44,540 nucleotides of DNA from Escherichia phage vB_EcoS-phiEc4. Positions 14,166 to 44,540 of this stretch are shown piece by piece. The stretch lies in sequence record MZ576218; one strand, 5' to 3'. The translations under genes and the position numbers were made by a program. Position 1 is the first letter of the stretch, and each line of letters begins with the position of its first letter. Under the pieces are notes generated by a model. It worked only from the letters and a program-made list of their open reading frames with translations, had not been told where the DNA came from and did not search any database.

Positions 14166-14272
14166 GTAGTGTGCTAGAATAATTTTGCGCCTAGTGTCGC
14201 ACACGAAAAGCGGGTGGTTCCCGTCTGGCGCATTTCCTTTAACCAGTAACCTCTTAACCAAAGGATTAAAGA

Positions 14273-14689
14273 ATGAAACTTTCTGATTTTTATTACGAAG
14301 CGGAAGCCGAAAAGGGCGCACGTATGCCGATACCGCTAAAAGACGGTACTGATTCCGGGGAATGGCTTAATGTTGTTTCTCCTGAGGCGGACGTTGCCGT
14401 TAAGGCTATGCGCGCGTTCACCCTTGCATACCGGGCAGTATTAGGGAAATTAAAACCGCTTCGTGATAAGTGCGAAGAGATGAAAGATTTCTCTGAATAC
14501 AACCTGAAGATGGAAGACGCGGCGACGGACCTTAACCGTCAGTTAGCGATTGAATTGGTTAACGGGTGGAGCCTTGACGACGAATTCAATAAAGAGAATC
14601 TGAACACACTCCTGACGCAATATAAACGACTCGCGGAACTTGTTGTTGTGTTTCATAACGAACAACTGCACCAGCTACAGGAAAAGTAG
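14273..14689 (+). CDS. tail assembly chaperone (G-like)
   Basis: 138 aa immediately upstream of tape measure gene; followed by -1 frame ORF lacking its own RBS. Confidence 0.55.
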   Translation: MKLSDFYYEAEAEKGARMPIPLKDGTDSGEWLNVVSPEADVAVKAMRAFTLAYRAVLGKLKPLRDKCEEMKDFSEYNLKMEDAATDLNRQLAIELVNGWSLDDEFNKENLNTLLTQYKRLAELVVVFHNEQLHQLQEK

Positions 14690-34169: not shown

Positions 34170-34198
34170 ACTATAATAGCGAACTATTCACATGTCAA
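34170..34198 (-). promoter_or_regulatory. promoter P_B (TTGACA-17-TATAGT) with AATAG-CGAA-CTATT palindrome in spacer
   Basis: reverse complement reads TTGACATGTGAATAGTTCGCTATTATAGT; divergent from the HTH gene promoter. Confidence 0.6.
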
Positions 34199-34222
34199 TG
34201 GGCTTTTCTAAAATAATTAATA

Positions 34223-37586: not shown

Positions 37587-37615
37587 TTGACTTTTACTTG
37601 AAAATATGCTAAGCT
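37587..37615 (+). promoter_or_regulatory. promoter P_C copy 2 (TTGACT-17-TGcTAAGCT, extended -10)
   Basis: same architecture as 4997..5025. Confidence 0.55.
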
Positions 37616-37620
37616 TCACT

Positions 37621-37858
37621 GAGCTTGTGAGATATCGCAAGCGACCGCGGAGCGGCAGGGAACGCAACGCGTGCCATTAGGCACTTGAGTGTAGTTCCGC
37701 TGACGCTTTCGGAAGGGTCAAAGTCTATTGTTAATCCCGCCTAAATATCCAAGTCACGGATAATTAAAAGTTTCTATAGTTGCCGTGAGCAAGGTAGAGA
37801 GTACTTCACTCCGCTGGGGTGGGCTAACGCCCACCCACTGCGTTGCGTACTCTTTTAA
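37621..37858 (+). ncRNA. promoter-proximal structured RNA element, copy 2
   Basis: core 37621..37725 homologous to 5032..5135 with compensatory substitutions; 3' region has GC-rich hairpin GGGTGGGC-TAAC-GCCCACCC nested in AGAGTAC/GTACTCT helix followed by TTTT. Confidence 0.5.
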
Positions 37859-37895
37859 GAAACGAAAGAATCACAGCGGCAACGTAACTATTCTC

Positions 37896-37924
37896 TTGCA
37901 CACCCCAACATAATAGGATACTAT
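37896..37924 (+). promoter_or_regulatory. promoter P_A copy 3 (TTGCAC-17-TACTAT) with AATAG-GATA-CTATT palindrome
   Basis: TTGCACACCCCAACATAATAGGATACTAT; followed by leader GAGACAGAGGAG and gene 37959. Confidence 0.6.
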
Positions 37925-37958
37925 TCACTTATCGAAACGAGACAGAGGAGTGAGGGTT

Positions 37959-38150
37959 ATGTTTAAGAAGGGTCAGTTGGTTAAAACTAAACGCGGAGGG
38001 CAATATGTATTAGTGTTGCAGGACGAGAGCGAGTATGACGAGGATAATCTGGTTGACGTATGGGGTCTGGTAAGAAAGAAAACTGGGTTCGCCTCACGCG
38101 ATAATTTAGAACTCATCGGCAACAATTTTAAATTCAAAGGGGTGAAGTGA
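37959..38150 (+). CDS. hypothetical early protein
   Basis: track ORF 37950..38150; ATG 37959 with RBS GAGGAGTGAGGG. Confidence 0.5.
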   Translation: MFKKGQLVKTKRGGQYVLVLQDESEYDEDNLVDVWGLVRKKTGFASRDNLELIGNNFKFKGVK

Positions 38151-40123: not shown

Positions 40124-40318
40124 ATGGTACAGAGATACGAGTTAGAGTTGTTTCATCAGAAAGGTGGCTCGGTAAACCCGTGCGATGATGGTGGATACAT
40201 AGAGTACGAAGATTACGCGAAACTCGAAGCCGAGTTACAGAAATACAAGGACCAGTTTCCTGATTACGTTGAGTGCGCGAACTGTGGGTCAGTTACACAT
40301 GTGGAGGGGGTGGAGTGA
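40124..40318 (+). CDS. hypothetical small protein (paralog A)
   Basis: track ORF 40103..40318; ATG 40124 with RBS AGGAGA; MVQRYE...YEDYAKLE. Confidence 0.45.
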   Translation: MVQRYELELFHQKGGSVNPCDDGGYIEYEDYAKLEAELQKYKDQFPDYVECANCGSVTHVEGVE

Positions 40319-41436: not shown

Positions 41437-41899
41437 TGGATTGCATTTTACCGCCGCGTTCGAGGGATTCCGAGGAACTGCGTATCGCGCTACACCGAAT
41501 GAGAAGTACCTGACTATTGGGTATGGAAGCTATGGCCCGCATGTTAAGGCGGGGCAGACCATCACTCCAGGACAAGGCCTCCTGTTACTTAATCGCGATA
41601 TGGCTAAAGCCGTAGCTGCGGTTGATGCGGCAGCGCACCATTCACTGACACAGGCACAGTTCGACGCTGTGTGTGACCTGGTCTACAACGCAGGCGCTGG
41701 CGTGATTGCCGCTACCACGGGCACAGGTAAGGCGCTGCGTTCTGGTGACATCGAGACGCTGCGGGCTAAGCTGACACTGTTCATCAACCAGAACGGCAGA
41801 CCACTACTCGGCCTGCGTCGCCGTACAGCAGGTCGTCTGGCGCTGTTTGACGGTAAACCGTGGCAAGAGGCGGAGGCAATTGGGAGGGCTGTTAGATGA
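41414..41899 (+). CDS. endolysin, phage lysozyme (GH24-like)
   Basis: track ORF 41363..41899; likely GTG start 41414 with RBS GGAGG; motif FEGFRGTAY...TIGYG typical of T4-type lysozymes. Confidence 0.8.
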   Translation: MSRNISDNGLHFTAAFEGFRGTAYRATPNEKYLTIGYGSYGPHVKAGQTITPGQGLLLLNRDMAKAVAAVDAAAHHSLTQAQFDAVCDLVYNAGAGVIAATTGTGKALRSGDIETLRAKLTLFINQNGRPLLGLRRRTAGRLALFDGKPWQEAEAIGRAVR

Positions 41900-41960
41900 T
41901 GGAAGAAAACTGGGACGTATAGTAAACTTACTCCCACGCTGCTTGTGCTTGCACCACCCG

Positions 41961-41991
41961 AAACCCGGACCGCGAATCCGGGTTTTATTTT
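41961..41991 (+). terminator. rho-independent terminator after lysis cassette
   Basis: perfect 9-bp stem AAACCCGGA/TCCGGGTTT, loop CCGCGAA, followed by TATTTTA. Confidence 0.75.
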
Positions 41992-41996
41992 ACCAA

Positions 41997-42025
41997 TTGA
42001 CACCTAAGACTAATCCGACGATACT
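41997..42025 (+). promoter_or_regulatory. sigma70-like promoter (TTGACA-17-GATACT)
   Basis: consensus -35 with 17-bp spacer; lies between two terminators. Confidence 0.5.
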
Positions 42026-42031
42026 TAAATC

Positions 42032-42096
42032 ACCTCCTGTTCCATCCCTCTGCTCTCCAGTTTTATCCCGGCCCTGACCCAGCCGGGATTTTTTTA
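42032..42096 (+). ncRNA. candidate ~65-nt small RNA with CCUCC anti-SD-like motif
   Basis: bounded by promoter 41997..42025 and terminator 42065..42096; no ORF. Confidence 0.35.
42065..42096 (+). terminator. rho-independent terminator
   Basis: ATCCCGGC-CCTGACCCA-GCCGGGAT followed by TTTTTTTATC. Confidence 0.7.
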
Positions 42097-42117
42097 TCTA
42101 TTTCCGATAATGACTAG

Positions 42118-42146
42118 TTGACTATTACCACCGACCCTATTATATT
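42118..42146 (+). promoter_or_regulatory. sigma70-like promoter (TTGACT-17-TATATT)
   Basis: read directly; about 35 nt upstream of ATG 42181. Confidence 0.55.
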
Positions 42147-42180
42147 TACTCCATCGACAACGAGAACGGAGTAGAGAGAA

Positions 42181-42330
42181 ATGAAAATCACAGATATCGA
42201 TGCATTCGAAGACGCACAACTGATGGCACGCATCGCCGTCAATAACCTGAGTGGTAATATCCCGGCGGATGCGTTCTGGGCCGCCGCGATGCAGACACTG
42301 AAAGCCGCTTATGCAGGAGAGAAGAAATGA
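42181..42330 (+). CDS. 49-aa hypothetical protein
   Basis: not in track; RBS GGAGTAGAG; ATGA overlap with next ORF. Confidence 0.45.
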   Translation: MKITDIDAFEDAQLMARIAVNNLSGNIPADAFWAAAMQTLKAAYAGEKK

Positions 42331-42485
42331 GTGAACAAGGTCAAGTAAGCCAACCGTTACGAGTAGGCCGTAAAGTCAGTCACACCCCGTTCCCGACACG
42401 TGAAGAACTGATGAAACGTAACAGTTTCCCGGGGCCGGACAAGAACAAGTATCTCAATCGCATGTGGGGAGAGCGTAAAGAATGA
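42327..42485 (+). CDS. 52-aa hypothetical protein
   Basis: not in track; translationally coupled on both sides. Confidence 0.45.
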   Translation: MSEQGQVSQPLRVGRKVSHTPFPTREELMKRNSFPGPDKNKYLNRMWGERKE

Positions 42486-42871
42486 CTGACCGCGAATATG
42501 AAAAGATGATGGTTGAGGCCGTTAACAGCGGCGTAGACATCGGACACGTGATGCGCGTCCTGAATACTAAAATCGCGGTAGCCGAGCAAATGGTCGAGTC
42601 GCTTTACGAGACGCGCCGTATTCTGGTGCTTGAGTCGGAGAAACAGACGTTAGGAGGGCAACTGTCGATTAACGGTGAGTTTCAGCTGGAGGCGTTCCGT
42701 ATACTCCTCGGCGTTATGAAGCAGGAACCCAGCGCATACGCAGGAGTGTTCCTTGACGAGGAAGGTTCGCAGACACTAAGTTACTACGCTACCGAAGAAG
42801 AATTAGCGTTCGACGGCCCCGCGGTATCTATCCCGCTGTTCGATAACTGGATGGTGTACGACTATGACTAA
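42482..42871 (+). CDS. hypothetical protein
   Basis: 129 aa track ORF, ATGA coupling. Confidence 0.5.
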   Translation: MTDREYEKMMVEAVNSGVDIGHVMRVLNTKIAVAEQMVESLYETRRILVLESEKQTLGGQLSINGEFQLEAFRILLGVMKQEPSAYAGVFLDEEGSQTLSYYATEEELAFDGPAVSIPLFDNWMVYDYD

Positions 42872-43049
42872 AGCGCCTGAACCAGTAGTTATCGATGGCG
42901 TCCTGTGGAAGCCATACTCGGTTTACCACATCGACGCCGACGGGAAGAAGTTTAGCTTCTACATTTTTGCAATTAGCCGTGAGCACGCCGCTTGTGTGGT
43001 TGACGATATTCGAGAAACGGCGTGGCTTGGTGATGAGATAGCGGGGTGA
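42864..43049 (+). CDS. hypothetical protein
   Basis: 61 aa track ORF overlapping previous gene by 8 nt. Confidence 0.5.
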   Translation: MTKAPEPVVIDGVLWKPYSVYHIDADGKKFSFYIFAISREHAACVVDDIRETAWLGDEIAG

Positions 43050-43053
43050 GAGT

Positions 43054-43143
43054 ATGAGTCTCGAGGTGGTTATCGGTCTGGTGGGTCTTAGTTACTTCAT
43101 TGGGCTGTTGGTTGGGCTGTTGGTTGGGTTTCTGTGGGGGTAA
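43054..43143 (+). CDS. 29-aa hydrophobic peptide (MSLEVVIGLVGLSYFIGLLVGLLVGFLWG)
   Basis: not in track; RBS GGGGTGAG; contains tandem 12-nt repeat GGGCTGTTGGTT x2. Confidence 0.35.
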   Translation: MSLEVVIGLVGLSYFIGLLVGLLVGFLWG

Positions 43144-43149
43144 ATACTA

Positions 43150-43320
43150 ATGTTCAGTGACATTAACGCGGCAATCGAAGAAGCAATCTGGCGTCGCTAC
43201 AACGGCGAGCAACAACGGCATTTCTGCCTGGTGCAACGCGGTAACATGATTGCCGTAGTGCAGGACCGCGATAACAAATATCCGAATGCGATGTGGACAA
43301 CGAGGAATTTTTTAGGATGA
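43150..43320 (+). CDS. 56-aa hypothetical protein
   Basis: not in track; ATG 6 nt after previous stop. Confidence 0.4.
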   Translation: MFSDINAAIEEAIWRRYNGEQQRHFCLVQRGNMIAVVQDRDNKYPNAMWTTRNFLG

Positions 43321-43553
43321 TTACCAGCATTCCGAACCTGATTAAAGAATTCGGCACGATGGCCGAGACATGCCGGCAAACCGGCATCAACGAAATGACG
43401 ATTGCGAAGTACAGCAAAGACGTTGATTGCGAGCGCCACGTAATTTATAACAATCGTCTGATGACACATGTTAAGACAAGCCCGGTGTTATTCACGCGCC
43501 GAGGTATCACTAAAACTGAGCAACGCATTGCTAAAGAGGAGAGTGGAGAATGA
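43317..43553 (+). CDS. small HTH-like DNA-binding protein
   Basis: track ORF 43293..43553; ATG 43317 (ATGA overlap) or 43293; segment AETCRQTGINEMTIAKYSK looks helix-turn-helix. Confidence 0.45.
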   Translation: MITSIPNLIKEFGTMAETCRQTGINEMTIAKYSKDVDCERHVIYNNRLMTHVKTSPVLFTRRGITKTEQRIAKEESGE

Positions 43554-43822
43554 TTGAATATGATAACTACCACATAAACCGGTGTGAGGCACTTGAATTT
43601 TTGTCCAGAAACTTCCACGATTTCCCAGAACACATGCCTAATGTACGCGAAGTTGCGGAGGGTATTTCCGAGAACATATTCAAAGGCTGGCGATTCGTCG
43701 TTATTGATTCTGGTGAGTTGGTTTTCGCTGATTGCCTTTCACCATGTATTCGTAAAATAGACCTTGAGGAATTTAATGCAACTTTTAGTCTTTCCGAATG
43801 CCTGGGTTATAGCGGTAGCTAA
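43550..43822 (+). CDS. hypothetical protein
   Basis: 90 aa track ORF, ATGA coupling. Confidence 0.5.
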   Translation: MIEYDNYHINRCEALEFLSRNFHDFPEHMPNVREVAEGISENIFKGWRFVVIDSGELVFADCLSPCIRKIDLEEFNATFSLSECLGYSGS

Positions 43823-43880: not shown

Positions 43881-43906
43881 AAGCCCTCTACGGAGGGCTT
43901 TTCTGT
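43881..43906 (+). terminator. rho-independent terminator
   Basis: perfect 8-bp stem AAGCCCTC/GAGGGCTT with TACG loop followed by TTCTGT. Confidence 0.65.
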
Positions 43907-43998
43907 ACATCCCGCCCAATCCCCTTATATAATCCCTTTAGACGCGTAGGGCGCGTCTGGTGCGCTCTGATGGTCAGACGCATATGCAAGGGGATTCT

Positions 43999-44540
43999 AT
44001 GAAGCTGAAACTTAAGCAGCCATCGCCAGAGGTGGTACAAGCTGCACATGAAGAAGCTGTTAGCGCAAACCGTCGCCGTAAACGACCGCGCGGTAAACAG
44101 AGCCTTTATCAATCATCACGTAACTCCGCCGCACTGTGGGACCCGGACTATTGCGACGCGTTAATCGAGTTCTTTGACCGCACGTCGTGGGAGCTTGTGC
44201 CAACGTCTAAGGGTGATGAACGCCCACTGATTCAGGATAAGCCGCCGTCACTGGCCCGCTTCGCCTTACACATCGGCGTCACTATCCCTATTATTAAGCT
44301 TTGGCTGCGTGAGATTCCCGCATTTGCAGAAGCCTGGGAGACAGCACAGGCGCTGGAAGAGGCATACTTCACTGAGACAGGGGCTGCGGGCATCTCGGCT
44401 ACGTTTGCCGCGGCTAAACTGGGCCTCAGCAAAGAGAAACCGGTTGCATCCACCGAAGAACCAGCACCGACTGAGATTGTTTTCAGTGTTGCGGAGCCTG
44501 TAGGTAAAATCGTAACAACGAACATGGGTGAGGTAGAGGA
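43999..44540 (+). CDS. terS: terminase small subunit (3' end runs off window)
   Basis: ORF open from ATG 43999 to window end (no stop, hence absent from track); basic N-terminus with RRRKRPRGK; sits immediately upstream of terL in the circular map. Confidence 0.6.
   Translation, partial: MKLKLKQPSPEVVQAAHEEAVSANRRRKRPRGKQSLYQSSRNSAALWDPDYCDALIEFFDRTSWELVPTSKGDERPLIQDKPPSLARFALHIGVTIPIIKLWLREIPAFAEAWETAQALEEAYFTETGAAGISATFAAAKLGLSKEKPVASTEEPAPTEIVFSVAEPVGKIVTTNMGEVE

Follow-up and report, generated by a model that had tools for sequence, protein, structure and literature searches.

The window analysed here, meaning the whole stretch of 44,540 nucleotides (nt), comes from Escherichia phage vB_EcoS-phiEc4 (record MZ576218). 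This phage belongs to the genus Kagunavirus of the Guernseyvirinae, a subfamily of virulent siphophages. On the + strand of the window, just behind the lysis genes, a sigma-70 promoter (P1) is followed after a short non-coding segment by an intrinsic terminator (T2), and a second promoter (P2) stands directly behind that terminator. We propose that this P1-T2 unit is likely a real, previously undescribed phage small RNA (sRNA) gene, whose function we infer from its sequence features and their conservation. The elements of the locus are as follows:

41960..41992, + strand: T1, intrinsic terminator of the lysis cassette; a hairpin of the form AAACCCGGAC/GUCCGGGUUU-like, followed by TTTTATTTTA
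41997..42025, + strand: P1, sigma-70 promoter; TTGACA (41997-42002), 17-nt spacer, GATACT (42020-42025); 10/12 to consensus
42032..42095, + strand: predicted non-coding RNA of ~61-65 nt, ACCUCCUGUUCCAUCCCUCUGCUCUCCAGUUUUAUCCCGGCCCUGACCCAGCCGGGAUUUUUU(U); start inferred from the position of the -10
42032..42064, + strand: unstructured CU-rich 5' region, candidate seed; unpaired in single and consensus folds
42034..42039 (CUCCUG), 42043..42051 (CAUCCCUCU) and 42052..42055 (GCUC), + strand: conserved blocks of the candidate seed, from the alignments
42065..42095, + strand: T2, intrinsic terminator; 8-bp stem 42065-42072/42082-42089, 9-nt loop, T-run 42089-42095
42118..42146, + strand: P2, sigma-70 promoter of the next operon, given as context outside the RNA; TTGACT (42118-42123), 17 nt, TATATT (42141-42146); 10/12 to consensus
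42147..42180, + strand: P2 leader with its ribosome-binding site (ending in ATCGACAACGAGAACGGAGUAGAGAGAA), reaching up to the ATG at 42181; given as context

The P1-T2 unit and its predicted transcript

A first-pass annotation of the sequence had proposed T1, P1, T2 and P2 as the frame of a candidate sRNA gene or, alternatively, of an attenuator. All four elements were confirmed in the sequence at essentially the coordinates it gave. P1 is near-consensus as described (TTGACA-17-GATACT, 10/12), the second terminator ~40 nt after P1 folds into a hairpin of -13.3 kcal/mol when taken alone, and the further promoter before the next gene block is P2 (TTGACT-17-TATATT, also 10/12). The end of the second terminator needed a small correction, as position 42096, given as its last, is an A and the T-run stops at 42095. 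T2 reads AUCCCGGC-CCUGACCCA-GCCGGGAU (42065-42089), and the final U of the stem opens the seven-T run 42089-42095. T1 forms a 10-bp hairpin at 41960-41986 (-14.4 kcal/mol, z = -3.3, by folding). Our automated terminator scan missed both T1 and T2, the latter probably because its loop is above the limit of 8; a separate scan together with folding found both.

P1 and P2 are the top two promoter-like sites between 40000 and 44540, each at 10/12. In this region, seven matches of at least 9/12 were seen against 5.0 ± 2.1 in shuffled sequences, and in the whole window nine matches of at least 10/12 were seen against 6.0 ± 2.3 (P = 0.17). A near-consensus hexamer match alone is no better than chance and is no evidence by itself. 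What supports the P1-T2 unit is, on comparative grounds, its evolutionary conservation rather than the hexamer match.

Given a -10 element at 42020-42025, transcription is predicted to start at A42032, and the transcript to begin with ACCUCCUG. As the first-pass annotation had stated for its ~65-nt transcript, there is no open reading frame (ORF), and 42032-42095 contains no ATG, GTG or TTG; the sequence elements, the T2 hairpin and this absence of coding capacity are established. P1 and the Rho-independent terminator T2 enclose, as its own promoter and terminator, a transcript without an ORF in the 50-300-nt range. For the 65-nt RNA the folding energy is -13.8 kcal/mol (z = -2.3), and the minimum-energy and centroid structures of this RNA both consist of the T2 hairpin alone. 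The RNAalifold consensus likewise contains only this hairpin and leaves the 5' 33 nt unpaired, which gives a conserved single-stranded seed, on which constraint is only moderate within Kagunavirus.

Directly before the hairpin stands a U-rich stretch (42061-42064), which reads GUUUUAU, UUUAU or GUUUCU across versions of the RNA. All 31 unique RNA versions carry such a stretch before the hairpin and a U-tail, the T2 U-tract, 7-14 long. A U-rich stretch 5' of a hairpin with a U-tail of at least 6-7 makes a candidate Hfq-binding module, judged by sequence only. With its open 5' part, U-rich stretch, hairpin and U-tail, the predicted RNA has the build of an Hfq-type sRNA.

The first-pass annotation had also pointed to an anti-Shine-Dalgarno (anti-SD) motif in the transcript, CACCUCCU. 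This motif is present in Kagunavirus, where the DNA reads ATCACCTCCT and is identical to the 3' end of 16S ribosomal RNA (rRNA), but not in the genus Jerseyvirus, which has GCUCCUG. Between the two genera only CUCCUG is common, and CUCCU is common to all relatives. The C at 42031 is probably upstream of the start, and of ATCACCTCCT only ACCUCCU is likely transcribed.

Searches for known or homologous RNAs were negative. None of the Rfam 15 families matched the P1-T2 RNA at its gathering threshold, and the best matches, all below the gathering score, were RF02278 (23.4 vs 50), PsrR1 (20.4 vs 42) and anti-hemB (19.1 vs 49.5). In 5,426 complete E. coli genomes, no similar sequence was found on either strand, within a sensitivity limit of a stretch of ~20 nt or more. 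A scan with the pattern CTCCTG-N(2-8)-CATCCCTCT proved too unspecific: among the matches listed, those in bacterial contigs were only chance matches from unrelated taxa, and in viral contigs the seed pattern with a following terminator occurred only in Guernseyvirinae. On the minus strand, the sole ORF to come up to the unit (41683-42003) just touches the P1 -35 and does not extend into the RNA. Since no minus-strand ORF lies over the RNA, it is not a cis-antisense RNA. A minus-strand mini-ORF (ATGGAACAGGAGGTGATTTAA) was considered and rejected, because its length and sequence are not kept in Jerseyvirus and no promoter-like site was seen by eye.

Conservation across the Guernseyvirinae

The 501 bases around the P1-T2 unit are 100% identical to Escherichia phage vB_Eco_K-02 (PQ436005) and 90-97% identical to ~120 Kagunavirus genomes, including K1G, K1ind1-3, Golestan and fBC-Eco01. 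The identity between the window and PQ436005 is not genome-wide, and PQ436005 coordinates fail upstream of ~39.8 kb. With 41955-42180 as the query, a sensitive BLAST search recovered the P1-RNA-T2-P2 block in 444 phage records, of which 325 are named Salmonella phages and ~112 Escherichia or Kagunavirus; the remaining few are named for Raoultella, Klebsiella, Shigella, Proteus or Pseudomonas. The Jerseyvirus alignments (~75% identity) start at query base 43, which is 41997 and the first base of the P1 -35, and they extend to the ribosome-binding site of the gene after P2. For comparison we collected 44 unique IMG/VR versions and three further GenBank versions, and every one of them has P1, the transcribed segment and T2 as well as P2 with its leader.

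The adjacent endolysin gene served as the neutral benchmark. Between the window and Salmonella phage SETP7 it shows 79% protein identity and 39% identity at fourfold-degenerate sites. Comparison of the Kagunavirus consensus with the Jerseyvirus consensus gave the following numbers of identical positions:

P1 -35: 6/6
P1 spacer: 10/17
P1 -10: 6/6
P1 discriminator: 2/7
T2 5' arm: 7/8, the sole difference being compensated on the other arm
P2 -35: 6/6
P2 spacer: 12/17
P2 -10: 6/6
P2 leader: 32/34

The P2 hexamers are invariant in all 44 unique relatives. Within genera, the hexamers show a diversity of 0 to 0.03 and the T2 stem one of no more than 0.004, as against 0.08 to 0.24 in the spacers (0.08-0.14 for the P1 spacer) and 0.44 in the Jerseyvirus discriminator. 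Six pairs of the T2 stem are invariant, and one differs by a compensatory change, being C-G in Kagunavirus and U-A in Jerseyvirus; this amounts to a single evolutionary event. The T2 helix is paired in 90% of cells, compared with at most 53% when the partner is slid, its loop keeps a CUGACC core, and in Jerseyvirus it gains one or two additional A-U pairs. Because a stop codon lies upstream of the -35 in Jerseyvirus, the hexamers are non-coding there and their conservation is not a coding effect. This conservation pattern is established, and in hexamers and stem it is, to judge from the alignments, what one would expect to see if both promoters and the terminator are functional. It indicates that the targets of selection are the hexamers, the stem of the terminator and the transcribed segment. 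As a side observation, several IMG/VR contigs, L004 and L033 among them, start within the T2 T-tract, and these starts are probably homopolymer assembly breaks.

A conservation boundary coincides with the predicted start of the RNA. The 6-7 bases between the -10 and this start are wholly different by lineage (TAAATC, AAACCT, AAACAT, GGTGTC), and after these divergent discriminators an invariant (G/C)CUCCUG begins at the predicted +1. Such a boundary fits selection on the putative transcript rather than on the DNA. Common to both genera are CUCCUG at +2/+3, CAUCCCUCU, GCUC, the UUUAU before the hairpin and the loop core CUGACC. About 27 of the 33-35 seed positions are identical between the genera, by hand count on a hand-corrected MAFFT alignment, and the lengths of the three small seed indels are not divisible by three. 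Between the -10 and T2, a spacing of ~38-41 nt is maintained.

T1 is distributed differently. It is carried by the window and by versions L023, L012, L009, L005 (= K1ind1), L013 and L050, and most other relatives are without it. It is located on a ~97-nt insert that is missing from most relatives, and by this comparison it lies outside the conserved unit. The description of the RNA as bracketed by two terminators is accordingly right for the window and a subset of relatives but not for most of the group. The endolysin of most Kagunavirus genomes ends ...GTG AAA GGT TGA, with the TGA within the P1 -35 TTGACA, and in Jerseyvirus the endolysin stop is a TAG 2 nt upstream of the P1 -35. Most relatives have no terminator between the endolysin stop and T2, so T2 is the sole terminator of their lysis operon. 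Since these relatives lack T1, the RNA sequence is there also the 3' untranslated region (3'UTR) of the holin-endolysin mRNA. The arrangement of a 3'UTR-derived sRNA with an internal promoter (type I) is thus found in most relatives and not in the window. In the T1-bearing genomes, P1 and the transcribed segment are unchanged though the lysis mRNA stops before them, which argues that the P1-driven RNA, and not a 3'UTR, is the maintained unit.

Proposed action, target search and rival explanations

In our reading, P1-T2 is a gene complete in itself, whose product would be a non-coding RNA of ~65 nt, conserved throughout the Guernseyvirinae and acting in trans by pairing, and we give this reading an even chance of being correct. 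That a discrete ~65-nt RNA is made appears quite probable from the features above; whether the predicted RNA would be a trans-acting regulator is, in our judgement, evenly balanced. The sRNA-gene reading of the first-pass annotation was strengthened by the occurrence of the unit in more than 400 Guernseyvirinae genomes, by the selection pattern and by the sRNA build, although it is unproven. In the proposed mechanism, host sigma-70 RNA polymerase would initiate at about A42032, transcribe 33 nt of unstructured pyrimidine-rich RNA and stop at the intrinsic terminator T2. We infer that the RNA would accumulate, bind Hfq or another chaperone and find its targets by pairing. Action in trans by base pairing is the most likely mode. 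Through its CU-rich seed (CUCCUG ... CAUCCCUCU ... GCUC), the RNA would base-pair with purine-rich ribosome-binding regions on mRNAs of the host, the phage or both, and so change the translation or stability of these mRNAs. In most relatives the RNA might come either from its own promoter or by processing of the holin-endolysin mRNA 3'UTR, and in the window T1 would separate it from the lysis transcript.

A broader form of action, to which we attach only a slim chance, is that host polymerase makes the sRNA already within minutes of the start of infection, and that its 5' end, a copy of the anti-SD end of 16S rRNA (ATCACCTCCT in the DNA of Kagunavirus), makes it a general decoy or competitor at ribosome-binding sites rich in purines, or else that it serves as a sponge for Hfq. 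If so, translation would shift from host to phage messages, and the RNA would not serve one specific target.

A number of results weigh against a conserved, pairing regulator. The 5' region of the RNA has a diversity of 0.071 within Kagunavirus, barely below that of the P1 spacer (0.083), and the spacers are 59-71% identical between genera, above the 39% of the neutral benchmark. Part of the conservation may therefore come from recent exchange of a mosaic linker and not from selection on the RNA. The P1-T2-P2 module indeed sits between two mosaic junctions, with the onset of homology at the -35 on one side and a variable first gene after the P2 leader on the other. Version L050 (IMGVR_UViG_3300015181_000003) has an inverted-repeat insertion of ~95 nt (1180-1276) between the P1 -10 and the seed, which would lengthen or disrupt the RNA; the termini of this insertion are the inverted repeats TTAGGCGAGTAGT ... 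ACTACTCGCCTAA, and it resembles a miniature mobile element. In addition, the sole infection transcriptome of a Kagunavirus classifies 57 coding sequences (CDSs) only (PMC12645636).

The search for phage targets also went against specific pairing. We ran RNAduplex with the 33-nt seed against 86 translation-initiation regions (TIRs) of the close relative PQ436005, and the best duplex (-31.0 kcal/mol) was no better than those of shuffled seeds (-29.2 ± 2.3, P = 0.21). Exact complementarity of at least 9 nt was not in excess either, with 6 cases in the window vs 6.2 ± 3.3 in shuffles and 9 in SETP7 vs 6.2 ± 3.1. The P2 leader was tried with a hand-built 13-bp scheme (GGAG:CUCC, UAGAG:CUCU(G/A), GAUG:CAUC) and rejected, as its pairing energy was no better than that of shuffled seeds (P = 0.25 and 0.41). 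For the early-right leader (37940-37961) there was an apparent compensatory change from C:G to U:A between genera, but the covariation failed in 37 further genomes, where GAGGG, GATGG, GGTGG and GGGGG occur without a change in the seed. Another candidate, the TIR of the gene at 40318 (GGAGUGAUGG), was dropped because the pairing is lost in fBC-Eco01. Target prediction on phage mRNAs, which the first-pass annotation had put forward as a check, thus yielded no target better than shuffled seeds, and the complementarity to SD sequences that it had pointed out did not exceed that of shuffles with the same CU-rich composition. Since pairing with SD regions is common to all CU-rich RNAs, the composition speaks for an anti-SD-type action but singles out no gene.

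These results bear on transcriptional punctuation, an explanation that we consider rather unlikely. T2 would here end the lysis operon and insulate P2, the short RNA being a by-product; the T-tract would double as an AT-rich upstream element for P2, with P1 as an auxiliary tandem promoter, some of whose transcripts would pass T2 and enter the P2 operon, so that the unit would be a leaky attenuator. The lack of a terminator between the endolysin stop and T2 in most relatives speaks for it, since T2 must then terminate their lysis operon, as does the position of P2, which comes within 22 nt of the T2 T-run and has an extremely conserved leader. No RNA target was found among the phage TIRs, the P2 leader or the early-right leader, and a similar terminator-then-promoter junction exists at 43882-43933. 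However, a promoter for the downstream genes would be expected after a terminator and not 40 nt before an 8-bp GC hairpin with 7-14 U. Punctuation also leaves the onset of conservation at +1 unexplained, and P1 and the transcribed segment are unchanged where T1 already ends the lysis operon. There is furthermore no leader ORF and no structure competing with T2. The attenuator that the first-pass annotation had offered as its alternative is weakened by this lack of a leader ORF and of an alternative fold, and by P2 standing just after T2; of the features of a classical attenuator, a start codon and, in our folds, strong pairing of the 5' part to either T2 arm are missing.

A loading site for antitermination, of the lambda pR'-tR'/Q type or the nut/boxA type, would let polymerase started at P1 pass T2 and later terminators into the terminase and structural genes once a factor of phage or host had bound in the initial transcribed region, whereas unmodified polymerase would stop at T2. 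A strong constitutive promoter, a short transcript and a terminator do resemble lambda pR'-tR', and the downstream genes through the terminase and structural genes lie on one strand with terminators between them. GCUCU in the RNA resembles the start of what we take to be boxA (GCUCUUUA), a tentative resemblance that ends after 5 nt in Kagunavirus. Inspection by eye of +1 to +25 showed no TAnnnT or -10-like pause element conserved across the two genera, and the 5' region has no put-like or boxB-like structure. No Q-type or antiterminator Pfam domain was found in the eight ORFs tested (seven of the P2 operon and one short ORF, 44048-44161, in the terminase small-subunit region), and P2 and the promoter at 43904 already serve the downstream genes. 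We regard this explanation as very unlikely. About equally poor are the prospects of a cis-acting 3'UTR element of the holin-endolysin mRNA (for stability, 3' processing or Rho loading) beside which P1 would be incidental. The segment is indeed the 3'UTR of the lysis mRNA in most relatives, and it is C-rich and G-poor, like Rho-utilisation (rut) sequences. But the lysis mRNA of T1-bearing genomes ends before the segment, which is nonetheless unchanged; the P1 hexamers are invariant though non-coding; and for a rut site, 33 nt in front of an intrinsic terminator would be short. Finally, the record PQ436005, the closest relative, annotates a 44-amino-acid (aa) hypothetical protein with a TTG start here (41943-42077 in the window, + strand), which is part of a 76-aa TTG ORF (41847-42077). 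This ORF runs across both T1 and P1, and most relatives do not have the insert on which its 5' half is located. Indel lengths between the genera are not divisible by three, and neither an ATG nor an SD sequence is present. A small protein gene therefore has a negligible chance in our view, and the 44-aa CDS is almost certainly an over-call that is not conserved.

Surroundings of the unit and comparison with known systems

All annotated neighbours of the P1-T2 unit are on the + strand. Upstream are small genes, two holins and the endolysin, which ends at 41899. Downstream follows a 1.7-kb operon of small genes (42181-43822) driven by P2, in which one ORF has a DUF2737 domain and one a weak NinH-like match (23.4 bits vs a Pfam cut-off of 29.8). 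After this operon come a terminator (43882-43902), a promoter-like site (43904-43933) and the terminase small subunit, and from the P1-T2 unit through the terminase and structural genes all genes are on one strand, with terminators between. The terminator-then-promoter junction at 43882-43933 (+ strand) consists of the hairpin followed by TGTACA-18-TATAAT, directly 5' of the terminase small-subunit gene.

Several further control elements were seen in the window. Similar promoter-plus-leader modules stand at 37896-37961 and 42118-42183 (+ strand; …ACT..ATCGA(C)AACGAGA..GGAG..ATG) at the head of the early-right and P2 operons, and their leader motif ATCGNAACGAGA is kept in most relatives. At least six different ORFs begin at the same ATG after the conserved P2 leader (42147-42183; L003-L051), so this start codon is a mosaic recombination junction. 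In the minus-strand replication block, near-consensus promoters stand back to back at 34170-34214, with TTGACA-17-TATAGT (11/12) on the minus strand and TTCACA-16-TAAAAT (10/12) on the plus strand. A promoter-like site at 37587-37615 (+ strand, TTGACT-17-TAAGCT) is followed by ~280 nt without a convincing ORF and a GC hairpin (37817-37838), after which a second promoter stands at ~37896; the equivalent in fBC-Eco01 is annotated as promoter, terminator, promoter. This part of the early control region (37587-37958) may give rise to a further non-coding transcript. The sole Rfam family at threshold in the whole window is the int-alpA RNA (RF02996), matched at 14184-14248 (+ strand; 36.6 bits vs a gathering score of 35.8) just 5' of an ORF at 14273-14689 (+ strand).

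A search of the literature turned up no small RNA described from Kagunavirus, Jerseyvirus or the Guernseyvirinae. At the homologous place, the fBC-Eco01 record has 'promoter5, terminator, promoter6' and gives no interpretation. A 2025 review of phage-derived sRNAs deals nearly entirely with temperate phages and prophages (PMC12197685). For strictly virulent phages, very few regulatory RNAs have been described. Among the Guernseyvirinae are the Salmonella Jersey-like phages and the K1-specific coliphages, both common isolates in work on biocontrol and therapy. An sRNA gene in essentially every member would, if our reading is true, add a new layer of control over host take-over or lysis timing. 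The P1-T2 RNA merits annotation, as its place is currently blank or mis-called as a 44-aa protein, and its Kagunavirus and Jerseyvirus versions offer a built-in comparative test for target prediction.

With the Betaproteobacteria toxic sRNA family RF02278, which combines CU-rich anti-SD motifs with a terminator, the phage RNA shares a UCUCC motif, a terminator hairpin and a U-tail. But its 23.4 bits fall below the gathering score of 50, and the likeness does not go beyond the generic terminator, so the RNA is not a member. The lambda pR'-tR' unit (6S RNA) likewise combines a strong promoter with a close terminator on the strand leading to the terminase and structural genes. The phage unit differs from it in standing after the lysis genes, not before them, in the second promoter directly behind its terminator, and in having neither a sigma-dependent pause element conserved between the genera nor, among the eight ORFs tested, a gene resembling Q. 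Lambda OOP and P22 sar are also short phage transcripts with their own promoter and a nearby intrinsic terminator. Theirs are antisense to a gene on the opposite strand, whereas nothing credible is encoded opposite the phage RNA, so any target would be in trans. The DapZ/MicL-type 3'UTR sRNAs are approached by most relatives, in which the P1 -35 shares bases with the endolysin stop or borders on it, and no terminator other than T2 is present. In the window, unlike in these sRNAs, T1 (41960-41992) stands between the endolysin stop at 41899 and P1 and uncouples the RNA from the mRNA, and the locus is that of a phage, not of a chromosome.

The predicted RNA can also be set beside the Hfq-dependent sRNAs RybB, OmrA/B and CyaR. 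It differs from them in having no Rfam match or E. coli homologue and in belonging to a strictly virulent phage. Like them it would have its own sigma-70 promoter, a length of ~65 nt and a conserved 5' segment free of structure, with a U-rich stretch, a GC hairpin and a tail of seven or more U behind it. In RybB and OmrA/B the 5' end is the seed, and CyaR directs a CCUCCU-containing seed against ribosome-binding sites; the CU-rich seed of the phage RNA would similarly be able to pair with AGGAG-type sites. The P1-T2 RNA would be an unannotated example of the phage-encoded, terminator-ended small RNAs, notable for its subfamily-wide conservation in virulent phages.

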